Shown: piece after piece, positions 11,210-52,723 of the stretch
How positions within the stretch are numbered: position 1 is the stretch's first letter
Layout: every line of letters begins with the position of its first letter
Assembly: GCA_019894795.1 (NCBI GenBank)
Contig: JAGXNV010000001.1
Span: 10,996 to 74,995, forward strand
Direction of reading: 5' to 3'
From: Candidatus Heimdallarchaeota archaeon
GTDB taxonomy: Archaea > Asgardarchaeota > Heimdallarchaeia > Heimdallarchaeales > Heimdallarchaeaceae
Length of the DNA stretch: 64,000 nt
The notes under the pieces: model-generated
What the model saw: only the letters and a program-made list of their open reading frames with translations
Databases searched by the model: none
Told to the model about the DNA's origin: nothing
Translations under genes and position numbers: made by a program

Positions 11210-12274
11210 ATGAAAAAGCGTTCAATTGTATTACTATTTATCTATCTGTTCTCTACGACAAATATGTTTTTGTCTATACCACTAAATGCGGATACTACCA
11301 TTGAATATGTTATAATGTATGATGAATATCATGGACAATTCTTTGACCGAGAGTTGATGAGCAAAGCTCTTGATTCACTTAATGAATTAATAATATATAA
11401 CAATGAAACTAAAGAAAGAGTTGAAATCAAAATTGATTTGATATTCAATAATGAAACAGCATTTAATTCTACAAATCTTCAAGGTGTAGATTTGCTTATA
11501 ATGACGAATTTTGGCTTTGAAGAGGAGAATAATCTGTTACTTTCAGAAAGACTTGCAATACTTGATTTCATGGAACTTGGTGGTTCTCTTTTTGCATTGT
11601 GTAACCCCTTGTCTTATGATGTGAACATAACAGGTAATCCTGTACCACTAAATGTGTTCCTTAATGAAAGAGATTCAGCCCTAACTACGGCTCGAATACG
11701 AACCCCTAATACGGTTAACTCAACAGTATTGGTAGATGATTTCTCACACGTTTATGAAAATAATACCTTTATATCATTAAAGAACTACGAAAGCGACCAC
11801 ACAATCTTTGAACAGGAAGTTACAATATCTAACTTAACACTATATTCGAGCTCAATTGAATTGGGGAACGAGCTTAGAGACGTTGCTATTGGCAGAACAC
11901 TTAACACGACCTATTCCGTAAGTGAACCCTATGAAATTTTCAGAGACCCCGCAACTGGTTTTCTAACTTGGTTCCTATCTCAAAGTGTAGGTAATTCAAG
12001 ATTTGTTTTATCTGGTTCTACAATCATGTTTAGTGATCTAGATATCATTGATGGTGAGAAATGGATCGACCAAGATCAAAACTTGGACCTCTGGAAAAAC
12101 ACAATTCTGTGGCTTCTACGATATACTCCTCATCCAGAATTACCTGCACTTCCGTTGCTGCCCTTCTGGAGCTATGCCTTAATTGTTGTAGGTATTGCAG
12201 TAATAATCTTTGGAATGTCAGTATTGTTATACAGATATCGAATTAACAAAAAGACTGAGTTCAAAGTTAAATAA
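11210..12274 (+). CDS. secreted, C-terminally membrane-anchored protein with a possible GldG/IFT52-type (GIFT/DUF4350-like) domain
   Basis: A signal-like N-terminus (MKKRSIVLLFIYLF) and a C-terminal TM segment (YALIVVGIAVIIFGMSVLLY) flank the protein. The segment GVDLLIMTNFGFEEENNLLLSERLAILDFMELGGSLFAL resembles the GIFT/DUF4350 core. Confidence 0.4.
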   Translation: MKKRSIVLLFIYLFSTTNMFLSIPLNADTTIEYVIMYDEYHGQFFDRELMSKALDSLNELIIYNNETKERVEIKIDLIFNNETAFNSTNLQGVDLLIMTNFGFEEENNLLLSERLAILDFMELGGSLFALCNPLSYDVNITGNPVPLNVFLNERDSALTTARIRTPNTVNSTVLVDDFSHVYENNTFISLKNYESDHTIFEQEVTISNLTLYSSSIELGNELRDVAIGRTLNTTYSVSEPYEIFRDPATGFLTWFLSQSVGNSRFVLSGSTIMFSDLDIIDGEKWIDQDQNLDLWKNTILWLLRYTPHPELPALPLLPFWSYALIVVGIAVIIFGMSVLLYRYRINKKTEFKVK

Positions 12275-35017: not shown

Positions 35018-35108
35018 TGGCGGACCAAGCAGGATTTGAACCTGCGAATTCCGGCTTTCTTCCTAATTTCCGGAGGCCGGAGCCTTATCCATACTAGACT
35101 ATTGGTCC
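35018..35108 (-). tRNA. tRNA-Arg (anticodon CCG) with a 13-nt intron at the canonical 37/38 position, CCA encoded
   Basis: Hand fold: acceptor GGACCAA/TTGGTCC, U8, D stem GTCT/AGGC, anticodon stem CCGGC ... GCCGG. The stem halves are separated by 20 nt (7-nt loop CTCCGG..A plus AAATTAGGAAGAA). T arm is GCAGG-TTCAAAT-CCTGC, discriminator G, then CCA. Confidence 0.75.
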
Positions 35109-42786: not shown

Positions 42787-43200
42787 CTAAGAAGCTGGTT
42801 TGACTCTCATGATTTTTCTTTTACCTATGGCATTCCAATATTCAACTTCAGCTCCTTCTGAGAGTATTTTTCTCAGTTCTTCTTCAGTTGGAAGTGCAGC
42901 TTCAAATGTATTATAGGTTTCAAGATCCATTAATTGAACGCTATCATCACTTAGAGAGATAACTTGTGCGTTTCTTTTGTCAATAATGGGGGATTGCAGT
43001 TTTGTGTCACCAGGAATAGAGATTTCCGTTTTGCTACCGGTGAAAATGTTTTCAATCTTCAGTCTACACTTAGAACTTCCGTGTTTTCCGGTTTTAGATT
43101 TTTCAATTCCACGAACTAGAAAAACCTCGTTATTTTGAATTATATAGTAACCTTCTTTGACTTGACCAGCTTTAATTGGTGTAACATCTTGTTCTGACAT
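42787..43200 (-). CDS. eif5a: translation initiation factor 5A (aIF5A)
   Basis: The hypusine-loop motif is SKTGKHGSSKCRL. The ATG at 43200 gives an N-terminus MSEQDVTPIKAGQVKEG. Confidence 0.9.
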   Translation of the reverse strand: MSEQDVTPIKAGQVKEGYYIIQNNEVFLVRGIEKSKTGKHGSSKCRLKIENIFTGSKTEISIPGDTKLQSPIIDKRNAQVISLSDDSVQLMDLETYNTFEAALPTEEELRKILSEGAEVEYWNAIGKRKIMRVKPAS

Positions 43201-43466
43201 ATATTTCTCCTCTTTTTTTTTGATTTTGGTAACTATTCTAAACAATGAATTTCTACATTACATGTTAAGGAGTACCATATATATGATTATTAATCTTGTT
43301 TTATTTTCATTATATTTAAAGGATTTTGGTTTTATTCTCACTGTAAAATGATTTTATGGTTAAATGGTTATATATAATCAAATCCTAATGTTGCGAAATA
43401 GAAAATTAGAATTTTAATAAGATATATATTGAAAAACAGCGGATAAAAGAAGAAGGAAGAAAAATA

Positions 43467-43910: not shown

Positions 43911-44120
43911 CGTTTTATCACTTATTAAACATCAATTATGAATACAGAGACTAAACTAATCGTGTCTTTTTTATACTCTCAAGTCTTCCCTCTTGAATTT
44001 TATTAAAAAACTTTTGATGCTCAACATAATTCTGTATGTGATTTTTTGTAAAATAATAATATTGTTTTAAGCTCTTGCCATCATAAAAAAATGAATACTA
44101 AAAAATACTCCACTGTATTC

Positions 44121-45506
44121 TTATACTCGCGTTTTTCTGCCTACCCACTTTAGAAAAATATCCCAATTATACTGAACATCACTGGAAACATCACTAGAAA
44201 AACTCACACTCTTTGTATCCTTTTTTAGCTTAGAGATGATTTCTTTAAGATAAGAGTTGTAGTTTGGGAAAAGCTTTATTGATTCCTTTTCAGGTTTAAT
44301 TCTCCAGTGCTTTACAGATTTACTAGGGGCCTTCATATTTGCTAAGCCAAGCGAAACATTTTCTTCAAATTTTCTAATGATACCATCTGTATGTTGAGCT
44401 ATGTATCTGATTTTTACTGCACTATTTTTTAGTATCTCTAATTTATCTATCTTGAGTTCCCATCCTTCTACCCTTAGACTACCATATCCGACAGAAGGCA
44501 ATCCATGATAATTCTTCTTATATAATTTGAGAAAATCAAAGATAGCAGATGTAAACATTTGCCATTGATAGTAGTATTCAGAAATGCAAAAGATGAAGTT
44601 TTTAACCCCAAATAGAAGATTATCAGAAATCGATAAGCAAGATTCTTTGGAGTTTTCTAAGTAATCAATAAAAGCTAACATCTTCAAATCAGAACTAAAA
44701 ACCTGTTTCATTCTTTTGATGTATTCTAATTTTGCTGAACTAGCGTTAATATTTTTCTCAGTACCAGCACTTCTTAGGAAGAATATCTTGAATTTTCCTC
44801 GTTCGATTCGATAATCAATAGGAAAGCTGCCTAAAATCCTTTCATTTATGTGGGGATATTGTTGTATTATATCATAAGGTTTTAGCATAAAATTCACATA
44901 TGGATCTCGTACATTAATTGAAGAATCTAAGTTCCATTTAATTGGCTTGAATTTTGAATCAAGAAAAACAAGAGCTCGATAATCTAGGTTTTTGTTCCCT
45001 GAACCAACAAACATTCTCATAGGTAGCCCTTCGGGCGATGTGAAAATCCTTAGAAATAGCATCATTGCTACAATTGATATATCCGGCGTGTTTTTGTTTG
45101 TGGTTCTATTGATGAGGGTTACCAATTCTTTTTTTAACAGAGTGTTACTTTTCAATTCTAGTACATTGGTTAGGGAATTATTGCCCATTACTTTTAGGAA
45201 TAATTTGTGTAGAGCAATATTATTTCCCAATTGTATGTCTGTATCCGCTCTTTGATCAAACTGGTTTTTGAATGGAAAATACCATGAATGTATTGAATCA
45301 TAGGGTGTTGTTGTAAACAATTGTTCTTTTGAGGATAACCAACATTCATATTTTCTAGGTGAAGTGTTTCCTAATATAATTGATGTTTTTACTTTTCGAT
45401 TTTTAAGAATTTCAAAATTTTGAAATTGAGAAAGTAAGCCATTAAAGACTAAATTAGCCATTTCGGCATACTTAATTAGAAAAGCATCTTCGTGCTGAAA
45501 AATCAT
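44121..45506 (-). CDS. hypothetical protein (orphan cassette gene 4)
   Basis: This is a 461-aa ORF with no Walker, RT, recombinase or Cys-cluster motif. A single Rx4H occurs (RYIAQH). A 75-nt gap separates it from the preceding ORF. Confidence 0.5.
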   Translation of the reverse strand: MIFQHEDAFLIKYAEMANLVFNGLLSQFQNFEILKNRKVKTSIILGNTSPRKYECWLSSKEQLFTTTPYDSIHSWYFPFKNQFDQRADTDIQLGNNIALHKLFLKVMGNNSLTNVLELKSNTLLKKELVTLINRTTNKNTPDISIVAMMLFLRIFTSPEGLPMRMFVGSGNKNLDYRALVFLDSKFKPIKWNLDSSINVRDPYVNFMLKPYDIIQQYPHINERILGSFPIDYRIERGKFKIFFLRSAGTEKNINASSAKLEYIKRMKQVFSSDLKMLAFIDYLENSKESCLSISDNLLFGVKNFIFCISEYYYQWQMFTSAIFDFLKLYKKNYHGLPSVGYGSLRVEGWELKIDKLEILKNSAVKIRYIAQHTDGIIRKFEENVSLGLANMKAPSKSVKHWRIKPEKESIKLFPNYNSYLKEIISKLKKDTKSVSFSSDVSSDVQYNWDIFLKWVGRKTRV

Positions 45507-45581
45507 GAGTATGTCATCTATATGTCTCTGTTTTACAAAATTAATACTATCTCGAATGTTTTTATCTACTAATTTGTATAA

Positions 45582-45998
45582 TTACCACTTCAGAGGATTT
45601 CTTCTTCGATCTATTCCATTTTCTTTTAATAAATCATCTGAGAACCCTTCAAAATCTAAATAACCCCCCTGAGAATCATATGATATTTTGAGATGAAATG
45701 CGCTCCCCATTATATTTATGGGTAATTCAGTGTTTTCATGTTGTATTTGAAGCATTACTGAATCTTTGATTCCCCTCTCATCAAATGCTTTAAGCGCTCC
45801 ATGCTGAATTAATGAATAAAGTTTTGCTTGACTTTTAATCGCTTCATAGAGGCTATTGGCATCTTTCACTCCAATTCTTAGAACTAAACTATTATAGAAC
45901 TCTGGTGAATTTTCAAGTTTGTGTAGTAAATGTTGACCAATTGTATCAGAACATGTTAATCTCCGTTCAGTTAATGACAATGTAATCTTGCGAATCAA
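45582..45998 (-). CDS. hypothetical protein (orphan cassette gene 3)
   Basis: This is a 138-aa ORF whose start overlaps the upstream ORF stop by 4 nt. Confidence 0.45.
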   Translation of the reverse strand: MIRKITLSLTERRLTCSDTIGQHLLHKLENSPEFYNSLVLRIGVKDANSLYEAIKSQAKLYSLIQHGALKAFDERGIKDSVMLQIQHENTELPINIMGSAFHLKISYDSQGGYLDFEGFSDDLLKENGIDRRRNPLKW

Positions 45999-46726
45999 TT
46001 CGTTGTTGATATTACCCCCGATTCTAGTGCTATATGGAAGTGTTTTCCATAGTGATGAGACATTGTTTTTATTAAATAATCATTAAAATCTCTTAACGAT
46101 TCATATTTTTCAATTCGTTTTATTAAATCGTATGCACCCGATTGTACCTTTAACTCTCCAAAATTTACATTATATTGGGTTTCTTCTTTTGTTATAAAAT
46201 ATAAATCAATACCATATTCATTTGGTCTCCTTTTCATTGTATGAGAATCTATAATAATATCTTTTGAATTGTTTTTCTTGACATTGTAGTAAGCTCTATG
46301 GAACTGATCTGAATTCTTATTGACTTTTAGCCACGCTTTAATCCAATATTCATCCATATTTTGAGAATTTATGTAGATCATGCCTTTGTCTAATCCAGAC
46401 ATTTTAGCTAAATATTTTACATAAACATCAGTTTCTTCTTCTGTTAATTCATGTCTGAGCTTATAAAATTCCATTATTGATTTTTTATTCTTTTCAAGGA
46501 ATTTGAATGTATTTTCACCTATATTCTTAGAATCAAGGACATTTTGATATTCTGTAAAAAGCATATTGTTTATATCAATTAAATTTTGTTCAAATATTAA
46601 CCGAGCTAAATTAATATCACCAGTAAATATACTCCTTTCAATGGAAGATACAATGCTTTTCCATCGTTTATTTGCAGTTGATCCATGTTTAGTTATGTGC
46701 TCCCAATCAGTATTTGGGAAAATCAT
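45995..46726 (-). CDS. hypothetical protein with a possible PD-(D/E)xK nuclease core (orphan cassette gene 2)
   Basis: This is a 243-aa ORF. GIDLYFITKEETQYNVNFGELKVQ gives a D-x16-E-x-K spacing. An AGGT Shine-Dalgarno-like element lies upstream. Confidence 0.45.
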   Translation of the reverse strand: MIFPNTDWEHITKHGSTANKRWKSIVSSIERSIFTGDINLARLIFEQNLIDINNMLFTEYQNVLDSKNIGENTFKFLEKNKKSIMEFYKLRHELTEEETDVYVKYLAKMSGLDKGMIYINSQNMDEYWIKAWLKVNKNSDQFHRAYYNVKKNNSKDIIIDSHTMKRRPNEYGIDLYFITKEETQYNVNFGELKVQSGAYDLIKRIEKYESLRDFNDYLIKTMSHHYGKHFHIALESGVISTTN

Positions 46727-46761
46727 AGCTTTTACCTGTTCTATTACATCTAATTGAGCTT

Positions 46762-47301
46762 TCAGTAAATCGTTTCTAGATGCTGCTTTATTTCTTGTAA
46801 AATTTTGCGGATATCTTGCTCAATTGTTTGTGTACTCTTGTTCTTGAAATATGATATATTTTTTAAATTTCTTATTTCTAAGGCTCCAATTCCATTATTA
46901 GTTAATCTAGTAGATTGATCCTGTAAATAATCATCACTGTTTGAACATGACCTCTCTGTGTTAGAAGATTGAGATAAAATTGTTTGTACACCTTTCTTCT
47001 TTTCTACAACTGTATCTTGATTTTCATTATTAAACCACACATTTTCATGTTCTGATTTTTCAAATAATTTATCTTGTTTTAGTTGTGTACTCGATAGCTC
47101 CAAACCATTAAGATCTGACAGCGTTAAGTGTGAAAGATCTGGCAATTTAGATTTTTTTTGAATTTTTGATATTTGCTTCTTTATCTGAATTATGTTTATC
47201 AGTTCTTCATCTATTTTGCTTTTCAATTCTTCATAAAATTCATCGCTAACTCCTTTCAGATTATTTTTTACTTCAACTTCAGTAATTCCAGCTTTTGCCA
47301 T
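46762..47301 (-). CDS. hypothetical coiled-coil / low-complexity protein (orphan cassette gene 1)
   Basis: The ORF is 179 aa from the ATG at 47301, or 186 aa from the TTG at 47322. The N-terminal half is Lys/Glu-rich heptad-like and the C-terminal half is Ser/Asn/Gln-rich. Confidence 0.4.
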   Translation of the reverse strand: MAKAGITEVEVKNNLKGVSDEFYEELKSKIDEELINIIQIKKQISKIQKKSKLPDLSHLTLSDLNGLELSSTQLKQDKLFEKSEHENVWFNNENQDTVVEKKKGVQTILSQSSNTERSCSNSDDYLQDQSTRLTNNGIGALEIRNLKNISYFKNKSTQTIEQDIRKILQEIKQHLETIY

Positions 47302-47326
47302 TTTCAACTTATTATCCTTCAATTCG

Positions 47327-47334
47327 TATTTAAA
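47327..47334 (-). promoter_or_regulatory. TATA-box-like element for the orphan cassette
   Basis: The minus strand reads TTTAAATA, centred about 29 nt upstream of the ATG at 47301. This spacing fits a leaderless transcript. Confidence 0.4.
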
Positions 47335-47633
47335 GGGGGTAGACGAAGAATTAACTTAAAACAACCTTCTGTTTACAAACTTCCTTGATAAAAAACAATA
47401 GCACTATGCAATCACATTTTATTTTATTTACATAAAAAACATATTTCAACTAATCATCCAGTTTGTAGAATTAGAGTTTGAATTTACGATATATGCAAAG
47501 ATCAAATGATCCAAGATTCCAATGTTTTGGAAAATGTAAGCAATTTCCTTGACGATGCTTTAAAGGACTTACAGTTAAAACATCAATATTTAGAATAAAA
47601 AATAAGAAAGGAAATTAAAGAAAACTATTTTTT

Positions 47634-51541
<3,908 letters not shown>

Positions 51542-51769
51542 TTTTATTCTCCAAAAACCTTTGAATCTCTACACTAATTTAACATAATGTAGCTAACCCT
51601 ATTCCTCCTCCTTAGCGATTTGATAAAAATCTTTTGATTCCCAACCAGTTTTCATAATTGTTGTTAAGAACAAATTTGATCAATTTTGTGTAATTAGTGA
51701 CAATAAATTCTGTAACTACTTAGAATTTATTAAGTGGTTCTCGAATCGTATAAACGTTAAGTGACAAAG

Positions 51770-52723
51770 ATGAGTTTGAAAGAAGGAAAATCGAAGAAAA
51801 TTGATGGTAGATTATTTGCACAAGAATATTTAGAAAAAGTACTAATACCACGCTGCAAAATATTTAAAGAGGTTTACAAAAAACTACCAAAACTATCAAC
51901 AATTCTTGTTGGAGAGAATCCCGCGTCGGAATCTTATCTAAAGCTTAAAGGAAAGTTTTTTACCAAATTGTGCGTTAAATCAGAGGTATTCCGTTTACCT
52001 AAAGAAACTACAGAAGAAGAATTATTAGAATTTATTAACAAACAAAATAATAATGATCAAATTGATGGGATTTTGGTCCAAGTACCACTTCCATCGCATA
52101 TAAACGAAGACACAATTGCTGAAAGTATCGCACCAAGTAAAGATGTTGAAGGTCTTTCTCCTGGTAATGTTCATTCATGGGCTAAATCTCTTCCAAACCT
52201 AGTTCCTGCAACCGCTTTAGGAGTTTTAGCACTACTAAAATACTATAAAATAACAATTGAAGGTAAACACGTTGTAGTTGTTGGAAGAAGTATGATTGTT
52301 GGTAAGCCTGTTGCACATTTATTGTTAAAGGAAAACGCAACAGTTACAATGTGTCATTCTAAATCAAAACCTCTTGAGGAGTATACGCGACAAGCTGATA
52401 TCCTAATTGCTGCTGTAGGACGCCCTCATTTAATTAAGAAGGGCATGATAAAGGATGGAGCTATTGTAGTAGATGTAGGAATAAACTTTGAAGATGGTAA
52501 AATGATGGGGGATGTTGATTATGACGATCTCTTGGAAACAGCAAGCTATATCACACCCGTTCCTGGTGGTAGTGGACCTGCAACTGTTTGTATGTTGGTT
52601 AGTAATTTATTACTTGCATTTGAACTTAACCAAGCCAAGAGAAACGAAGAGCGGCTTGATTGTTTAAGGGATTATTATGGAAATTATGATACAATAGGTG
52701 AATCAGGGTTTTGTATAGGATAA
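51770..52723 (+). CDS. folD: bifunctional 5,10-methylene-tetrahydrofolate dehydrogenase/cyclohydrolase
   Basis: Motifs present: ESYLKLKGK, DGILVQVPLP, VVVVGRSMIVGKPVA, TPVPGGSGPATV. A C-terminal extension of about 30 aa follows the conserved core. Confidence 0.85.
   Translation: MSLKEGKSKKIDGRLFAQEYLEKVLIPRCKIFKEVYKKLPKLSTILVGENPASESYLKLKGKFFTKLCVKSEVFRLPKETTEEELLEFINKQNNNDQIDGILVQVPLPSHINEDTIAESIAPSKDVEGLSPGNVHSWAKSLPNLVPATALGVLALLKYYKITIEGKHVVVVGRSMIVGKPVAHLLLKENATVTMCHSKSKPLEEYTRQADILIAAVGRPHLIKKGMIKDGAIVVDVGINFEDGKMMGDVDYDDLLETASYITPVPGGSGPATVCMLVSNLLLAFELNQAKRNEERLDCLRDYYGNYDTIGESGFCIG

Follow-up and report, generated by a model that had tools for sequence, protein, structure and literature searches.

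Between rpoA'' and rps12, in a 64,000 nucleotide (nt) stretch of Candidatus Heimdallarchaeota DNA (contig JAGXNV010000001.1, positions 10,996 to 74,995; the window in what follows), lie four open reading frames (ORFs) that a sequence-only reading had taken for an operon of four orphan genes. They are most probably (with a probability of about 0.8) one gene. The reading favored here is that a single orphan gene of approximately 1,060 codons, with its own promoter, now falls into four frames as a result of two frameshifts and a stop codon, and is a recently inactivated accessory gene. The ORFs themselves, g1 to g4, are co-directional on the minus strand, and the ORF list bears out the sizes and tight packing first described: a 35 nt gap between g1 and g2, a 4 nt overlap between g2 and g3, and a 75 nt gap between g3 and g4.

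46762-47322, minus strand: g1, 186 amino acids (aa) from a TTG, or 179 aa from the ATG at 47301
45995-46726, minus strand: g2, 243 aa
45582-45998, minus strand: g3, 138 aa, with a TTG start
44121-45506, minus strand: g4, 461 aa

Each of the four scores as coding in its own frame, with host-like codon usage that falls within the range of host genes, and the coding score of the other frames is strongly negative. No stop codon occurs within the four segments, as against means of 12-39 in composition-matched shuffles (the GC content of the window is 33.6%). Two features of the frames do not accord with four separate genes: g3 and g4 share one frame with a single TAA between them, and the g2 frame is open, and homologous to the protein described next, for 20 codons upstream of the g2 ATG.

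The evidence that the ORFs are pieces of one gene comes from an intact homolog. When 1.84 billion representative proteins were scanned exhaustively with g4 in HMMER, only P0004, P0003 and g4 itself came out, and word-indexed searches of 5.8 billion proteins with g4 and with g2 gave nothing beyond the queries themselves. P0003 is 165 aa long and 49% identical to the C-terminus of g4. P0004, from another metagenome, has 1,065 aa, and its residues 601-1039 match g4. The remainder of P0004 does not go unmatched. Its comparison with the region by tblastn showed it to be colinear with the whole cassette, in three frames: residues 1-116 correspond to the g1 frame (46% identity), residues 165-418 to the g2 frame, beginning 20 codons upstream of its ATG, and residues 428-1032 give a single alignment that runs through g3, the in-frame stop, the supposed 75 nt gap and g4. 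Repair of two 1 nt frameshifts and one TAA yields a protein of 1,066 aa, which aligns with P0004 in a single BLASTP alignment (1-1031 with 1-1032, 27% identity, E 1.6e-111). The four-gene operon is rejected because the colinear intact homolog and the repaired single ORF show one broken gene. The fragments and lesions, the latter located by three-frame inspection, are as follows (L034 is a second copy, dealt with below).

46762..47322, minus strand: fragment 1 (g1), from the N-terminal part; it has a long helix and a KLPDLSHLT motif and ends 7 codons past frameshift 1
46786..46790, minus strand: frameshift 1 (-1), where P0004 homology leaves the g1 frame after ..LQEIK and resumes in the g2 frame at AASRND..
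45995..46786, minus strand: fragment 2 (g2 and the 20 homologous codons 5' of its ATG), ending 7 codons past frameshift 2
46015..46019, minus strand: frameshift 2 (-1), in a GGGGG run, from ..HIALES to GNINNELIRK..
45585..46013, minus strand: fragment 3 (g3), which shares its frame with fragment 4
45582..45584, minus strand: in-frame TAA, aligned to Gln in P0004 and Gly in L034
44121..45581, minus strand: fragment 4 (25 codons of the supposed 75 nt gap and g4), the C-terminal 486 codons

After either frameshift the old frame closes within 7 codons, and the TAA is consistent with a change from CAA. At the level of sequence, an intact full-length homolog is colinear with all the fragments and with the stretches between them, which is what is looked for in a pseudogene. 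A quite different possibility is that the full-length protein is still made through programmed recoding, with two -1 ribosomal frameshifts and read-through of the TAA. That both shifts are -1, and that the TAA is opposite Gln in P0004, would be in keeping with this. However, no slippery X XXY YYZ heptamer can be read in the sequence at either shift site, L034, P0004 and P0005 (a further intact homolog) do not share the lesions, and the code is the standard one, since other window genes and g4 end at ordinary TAA or TAG. Programmed recoding is hardly credible.

Two contigs of other assemblies bear on the reality of the lesions. L028 (ENA ERZ27271168, from another assembly record) is identical to the window over 47195-45615, so that both frameshifts are reproduced. 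L035 (ERZ27271186) matches 45340-43604 except for its first ~45 nt, and confirms the junction of g4 with rps12.

L034, on a JGI 3300039051 scaffold, is a copy 50-58% identical in protein (58% for fragment 2) and is again directly upstream of rps12. It is also broken, though at different points. Two of its frame changes coincide with runs of N. When the first of these, a 10-N scaffold gap with ACTTAA duplicated on either side, is collapsed, g2 and g3 form a continuous ORF, in one frame throughout at the point where the window has frameshift 2. The genuine lesions of L034 are a deletion with a +1 shift just before an MFPNT motif, and a frameshift in another G5 run, shortly upstream of the point that corresponds to the window TAA. 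The idea that L034 is a conserved split operon was dropped, two of its frame changes being in N runs and the others at different positions. The split points in the window are thus not common to other copies: P0004 and P0005 are unbroken, and the lesions of L034 are at other positions.

Comparison with L034 also bears on the age of the damage. The ratio of nonsynonymous to synonymous differences per site (pN/pS; Nei-Gojobori estimates, window versus L034) is 0.32-0.40 for g2, g3 and both halves of g4, with fragment 2 at 0.32 and fragment 3 at 0.40. The 25 'intergenic' codons of the supposed 75 nt gap are 48% identical to L034 and have a pN/pS of 0.36. Control values are 0.6-0.8 out of frame and 0.05 for rps12. 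These ratios argue that the gene was under selection until recently and, with the L034 comparison, that it stayed a single ORF under constraint through almost the whole period since the divergence of the two copies. Inactivation is judged recent because there is one nonsense codon and there are no further stops in 3.2 kb, and because the stretches between the ORFs are still like conserved coding sequence. Disabling would have been independent, as well as recent, in the window and L034 lineages.

Several points weigh against the reading of one broken gene, and two other explanations draw on some of them. The TAA is at a position covered by neither L028 nor L035 and is seen in one assembly; moreover, these contigs may not be fully independent of the window, as they are possibly from the same sequencing project. 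A TAA seen in one assembly, with the location of one frameshift in a G5 homopolymer, is what assembly or sequencing artefacts in a genome with an intact single gene could give. Yet both frameshifts are identical in a contig of another assembly record, frameshift 1 is outside a homopolymer, the third lesion is a substitution, and three separate errors in 1.2 kb of an otherwise clean contig are unlikely. Artefact is a very unlikely explanation.

The continuity of g2 and g3 in L034 depends on the presumed collapse of the 10-N scaffold gap. In addition, L034 also has Met at the positions of the g2 and g4 ATGs and, given these starts, some of the fragments may be expressed. Functional fission, in which the ancestral gene has been split into four cooperating subunit genes of an operon, would fit these ATGs, the intact promoter and the host-like coding statistics that all four ORFs retain. 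However, the break points of the window differ from those of L034, where g2-g3 is continuous, and no ATG, GTG or TTG occurs in the 25 codons that precede the g4 ATG or in the 20 that precede the g2 ATG, stretches that are nonetheless conserved as protein. Also, the TTG start of g3 lies within a continuing frame, and each shifted frame ends after 7 out-of-frame codons. Fission is quite unlikely. A multi-gene operon or defence system was rejected on the basis that its components are not kept as separate ORFs with their own starts in homologous loci.

The AlphaFold2 models are a further weak point of the single-gene reading: with 11 alignment rows for P0004 and 8 for g4, the mean predicted local distance difference test (pLDDT) values are 40.5 and 38.8, and the models are unusable. 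The last point concerns history. Synonymous divergence (pS) between the window and L034 is 0.64-0.74 for the cassette and 0.63 for the adjacent rps12, and because the former is not lower, vertical descent, with presence of the gene in an ancestor, is favored; but synonymous sites are saturated, so that an old transfer through the conserved flanks is not cleanly separable from vertical descent.

An independent promoter for a leaderless transcript had been proposed from the sequence, and the comparison with homologs strengthens that proposal.

47327..47334, minus strand: TATA box TTTAAATA, preceded by a C-rich stretch
47299..47301, minus strand: probable start codon ATG, 25 nt downstream of the TATA box, with GTG at the same position in L029 (the P0004 locus) and L031/L033

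The octamer TTTAAATA occurs in the window as often as expected by chance (16 observed, 16.07 expected). In an alignment of the 90 nt upstream of family members, the sole common element is C(C)TTTA(A/T)ATA, followed by 25 nt and then the start codon. The distance from TATA to start is equal in the window, L029 and L031/L033, representing three subfamilies, and the sequence further upstream is unrelated. The database members P0006 and P0009, of the P0005 subfamily, begin at the corresponding GTG. A leaderless start at the ATG at 47301, giving a g1 of 179 aa, is preferred because this TATA-start arrangement is conserved across the three subfamilies; the TTG at 47322, only 4 nt from the TATA box, is unlikely as a start. 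As looked for in a leaderless archaeal promoter with a TATA box and TFB-recognition element (BRE), the TATA box is centred about 26-30 nt upstream of the start and is conserved among homologs. These features support a gene with its own TATA promoter and a leaderless start. L029 has a second box, CCCCTTTATATA, ~75 nt upstream of its first. A scan for sigma-70 promoters and intrinsic terminators gave chance-level counts, its models not being informative for an archaeon.

The locus would then have been one transcription unit, read from the TATA box and the leaderless ATG, and its product originally one cytoplasmic protein of about 1,059 aa (taken as cytoplasmic because no hydrophobic N-terminal segment is seen by eye). 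Three small mutations, the two -1 frameshifts and the TAA, would have turned it into four ORFs. Only the 179 aa N-terminal fragment would be reliably made from the promoter today; the downstream pieces would be remnants, not subunits.

Intact members of the family exist at other loci. A profile search found the P0005 subfamily: nine members of 947-970 aa, all single ORFs and all 'hypothetical', as is the annotation of P0004 and P0005 in general (e.g. MBA7527845.1). The N-terminal ~115-125 residues of P0005 are 53% identical to P0004 and 49% to the window copy, with weak colinearity beyond. P0004, P0005 and the window copy have in common an N-terminal helix and a KLPDLSHLT(W)SQLE motif. P0004 and P0005 resemble the window copy in full-length colinearity, in this N-terminal helix and motif, and in the TATA-to-start arrangement; they differ from it in being intact single ORFs at other loci, and identity is ~27% for P0004 and 49% over the N-terminus alone for P0005. 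The family has been seen only in low-GC (29-34%) contigs, and the placeable ones are Heimdallarchaeota. A metagenome scan returned only an already known P0005-type contig. P0004 has PPDK as its neighbor, MazE upstream and, 5.4 kb downstream, rpoB; P0005 is encoded between a NosD-like gene and an M32 peptidase gene. In L029 (321-497, 688-1569, 10335-11387), the genes preceding P0004 are a divergent MazE-like gene and a 293 aa orphan ORF, and rpoB is ~5.4 kb downstream. A P0005-type paralog is present in the same metagenome as L034 (L036 5176-7120, JGI 3300039051). Relative to P0005 it has a 24-codon gap and a frame change at ~6746, and there is also an N run; this points either to a further copy in decay or to a fault of assembly.

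What the intact protein does is approached here through its motifs and its distribution. The sequence-only reading could place none of the four ORFs in a known family, and searches of g1-g4 against Pfam, PADLOC, PHROGs and NCBIfam likewise gave nothing significant. It had also suggested a defence, toxin or mobile cargo module, to be checked with PADLOC and with structure models; PADLOC, Pfam and PDB searches gave no signal, even with the intact homologs. With PADLOC-DB 2.0 the best match (E 0.017, 13.8 bits) is on the low-complexity g1, and there is nothing for P0004 or P0005; Pfam and PADLOC-type family searches on P0004, P0005 and neighboring genes gave no significant match for the family proteins. 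PDB profile searches with the whole family and with its two halves were empty, and a Foldseek search of the unusable P0004 model against PDB had no match with E <= 0.001 (template-modelling score about 0.04). Rfam at a permissive threshold found nothing at the locus. Predicted secondary structure, taken from the low-pLDDT AlphaFold2 model, is mostly helical; the N-terminal helix spans 57 residues, and there are a few small segments of beta-sheet.

Two motifs had been offered as hints of catalysis. For D-x16-ExK, with its suggestion of a nuclease, the Asp (D373) of GIDLYF is invariant in a four-lineage alignment, but the ExK is present in three of the four lineages, P0005 having V/S-M-K and so no Glu, and pLDDT in this region of the model is 26-34. 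The spacing in the window is like that of PD-(D/E)xK nucleases, but one subfamily is without the ExK and neither profiles nor structures lend support; the hint is weak. The single Rx4H of the 461 aa ORF is not conserved. RYIAQH aligns with TYYMSR in P0004 and KYEACH in L034, so that R becomes T or K and H becomes R, and it is absent from P0005. The one Rx4H in the window is all that resembles the HEPN (Rx4-6H) RNases, again without profile or structural support, and a HEPN RNase was rejected because the motif is not conserved among homologs.

The best guess, made with low confidence, is that the intact protein is a dispensable, fast-evolving accessory or conflict-type protein and not a housekeeping factor. 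It derives from the patchy distribution, fast evolution, repeated inactivation and own promoter of the gene. A bolder version, that the intact family (P0004, P0005 and the ancestor of the locus) is an undescribed single-gene conflict module of Asgard archaea, defence-like or selfish, of which the window has a freshly disabled copy, is doubtful.

The surroundings of the gene are given next, from the rpoA'' side to the rps12 side.

47634-48842: RpoA'' (Pfam Rpb1 domain 5)
44019..47590, minus strand: extra ~3.57 kb absent from the rpoA''-rps12 spacer of the closest relatives; boundaries approximate
44085..44105, minus strand: two oligo-T runs (T6, T7) 3' of the stop codon, read directly from the sequence
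44001..44018, minus strand: conserved rps12 promoter motif ATCAAAAGTTTTTTAAT(A/G), present in the window, L021, L034, L025 and L017
43467-43910: ribosomal protein S12 (rps12), confirmed by Pfam

The oligo-T runs look like a candidate archaeal terminator. Homology to empty sites stops near 47597 on the left and resumes on the right at the conserved rps12 promoter motif, and the right edge of every insertion at this site is that motif, ATCAAAAGTTTTTTAAT.

Comparison of synteny in relatives had been set beforehand as a test, and variable presence is what it revealed. RpoA'' is 75-95% identical to its counterparts in 27 loci, nearly all from metagenome-assembled genomes annotated as Candidatus Heimdallarchaeota, and gene order was mapped by tblastn of neighboring proteins against the related loci. 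The norm in the clade is rpoA'' followed after 139-174 nt by rps12 (about 17 loci), with neither rpl30e nor nusA between, and then by aIF5A and an HD-domain gene. Of the genomes that span the site, the three closest (L002, L004 and L024, RpoA'' 94-95% identical) are without the gene. L021 has rps12 DNA 96.7% identical to that of L034, yet it lacks the gene. Presence or absence therefore varies inside two distant lineages, because the nearest relatives of the window and of L034 are without it. The states of the spacer are as follows.

Empty: about 17 genomes
Broken full-length copy: the window and L034
Copy truncated at its 5' side, next to a reverse-strand P-loop NTPase gene: L030
Remnant of 50 codons from the 3' end, including a stop codon: L025
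Two unrelated genes: L017

The truncated copy (L030 1-444, JGI 3300030453) is the 3' end of the family gene, 97% identical to L034. The reverse-strand gene fragment adjoining it has a P-loop and weak AAA, T2SSE and NACHT matches, and is absent from L034; in L030 another accessory gene may have displaced most of the cassette. The remnant in L025 (11351-11500, CAZPXJ010000001.1) is in an enlarged spacer of 441 nt; it is 36% identical to the C-terminus of g4 and has an in-frame stop. A different insertion, of 2.7 kb, is present in L017 (11210-13870, JAEOSZ010000026.1). Its two convergent orphan genes encode a 366 aa protein, hydrophobic in an N-terminal segment and in segments near both ends, and a 406 aa protein with several hydrophobic segments; neither has a Pfam or PADLOC match.

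Could the patchiness reflect gain instead of loss? The gene would then be mobile or defence cargo of recent acquisition, one gene with its own promoter forming an element that was inserted site-specifically in the rpoA''-rps12 spacer or spread by recombination between the conserved flanks. Its occurrence in two distant lineages whose close relatives are without it, the unrelated cargo in the same spacer of L017, the family members at other loci with the same promoter, and the P-loop NTPase gene adjoining the truncated copy in L030 can all be cited in favor. However, no recombinase, integrase or transposase gene was found in the insertion, and there are no convincing terminal inverted or direct repeats or target-site duplication at the locus. 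A similarity of 18 nt between sequences upstream of g1 and upstream of rps12 is not significant (216 of 1,000 shuffles reach its score). In addition, the cassette is no less divergent than the adjacent rps12 at synonymous sites, codon usage is host-like, viral contigs and phage and plasmid collections have no relatives of the gene, and PADLOC has no matches. A study of Heimdallarchaeum mobile elements (Wu et al. 2022, PMC8813620) does not mention rpoA, RNA polymerase, pseudogene or frameshift, and its 'integration site' and 'hypervariable' passages concern other loci. Recent acquisition is unlikely. On the reading of a decaying resident gene, the gene would be placed between the rpoA'' terminator and the rps12 promoter, in a spacer tolerant of accessory DNA in this clade; it was probably at the site in the ancestor, with recurrent decay or deletion, lineage by lineage.

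The context is not the highly conserved archaeal gene string that had been supposed. The string is already dispersed here: in the window rpoA' is preceded by a divergent FolD gene and not by rpoB, rpl30e and nusA are missing, and aIF5A comes after rps12. The window regions 42787-43245 and 51761-52723 and the rpo region show a dispersed RNA polymerase and ribosomal-protein cluster, in which aIF5A and an HD-domain protein take the places expected for rps7 and EF-2.

Other observations were made in passing. In a more distant relative (L023 11455-14038, CAZHRF010000001.1) the rps12-aIF5A-HD block is inverted relative to rpoA''. At a contig end in L003 (about 11215-11419, JAUWPI010000014.1) a tandem array with a unit of ~11 nt, TTTTAATTTCC, is directly 3' of rpoA'' and replaces the normal spacer sequence; it probably caused the assembly break. 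The rpoA'' of L024 (8438-10000, DAOVER010000014.1) is a 928 aa ORF with an insertion of ~526 aa between GEPGTQM and TLQTFH. The insertion, which is absent from the window rpoA'', has LAGLIDADG-type motifs (GWFIGAYLAEGN, LRGYFDGDGN) and, from these, looks like an intein with a homing endonuclease. Elsewhere in the window (35021-35108, minus strand) Rfam detects an 88 nt tRNA (51.4 bits) that was missed by ARAGORN; it may contain an intron.

Set beside known systems, the locus has the features of prokaryotic frameshift and nonsense pseudogenes: an intact colinear homolog, 1 nt indels (one in a homopolymer) with one premature stop, and fragments that, as co-directional and tightly packed ORFs, mimic an operon. 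It is unlike them in that the parent family is itself an uncharacterised orphan, with no known function to link to the loss. The spacer resembles variable hotspots between core genes, being empty in some relatives and having the gene, a remnant or unrelated membrane-protein genes in others. Unlike such hotspots, it has no integrase, tRNA or repeat at the site, and recurrent loss explains the pattern no less well than recurrent gain does.

The permissive spacer most probably contains a copy of one lineage-restricted orphan gene that recently became a pseudogene, and no new mechanism is seen in the broken copy of the window. A neat row of four co-directional orphan ORFs may be one broken gene, and colinearity with an intact homolog is worth checking before a new system is proposed. 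This Heimdallarchaeota clade is without the classical rpoA''-rpl30e-nusA-rps12 string, and what lies between rpoA'' and rps12 is variable. A small family of orphan proteins whose promoter is conserved is now defined, and it can be approached via its intact members.

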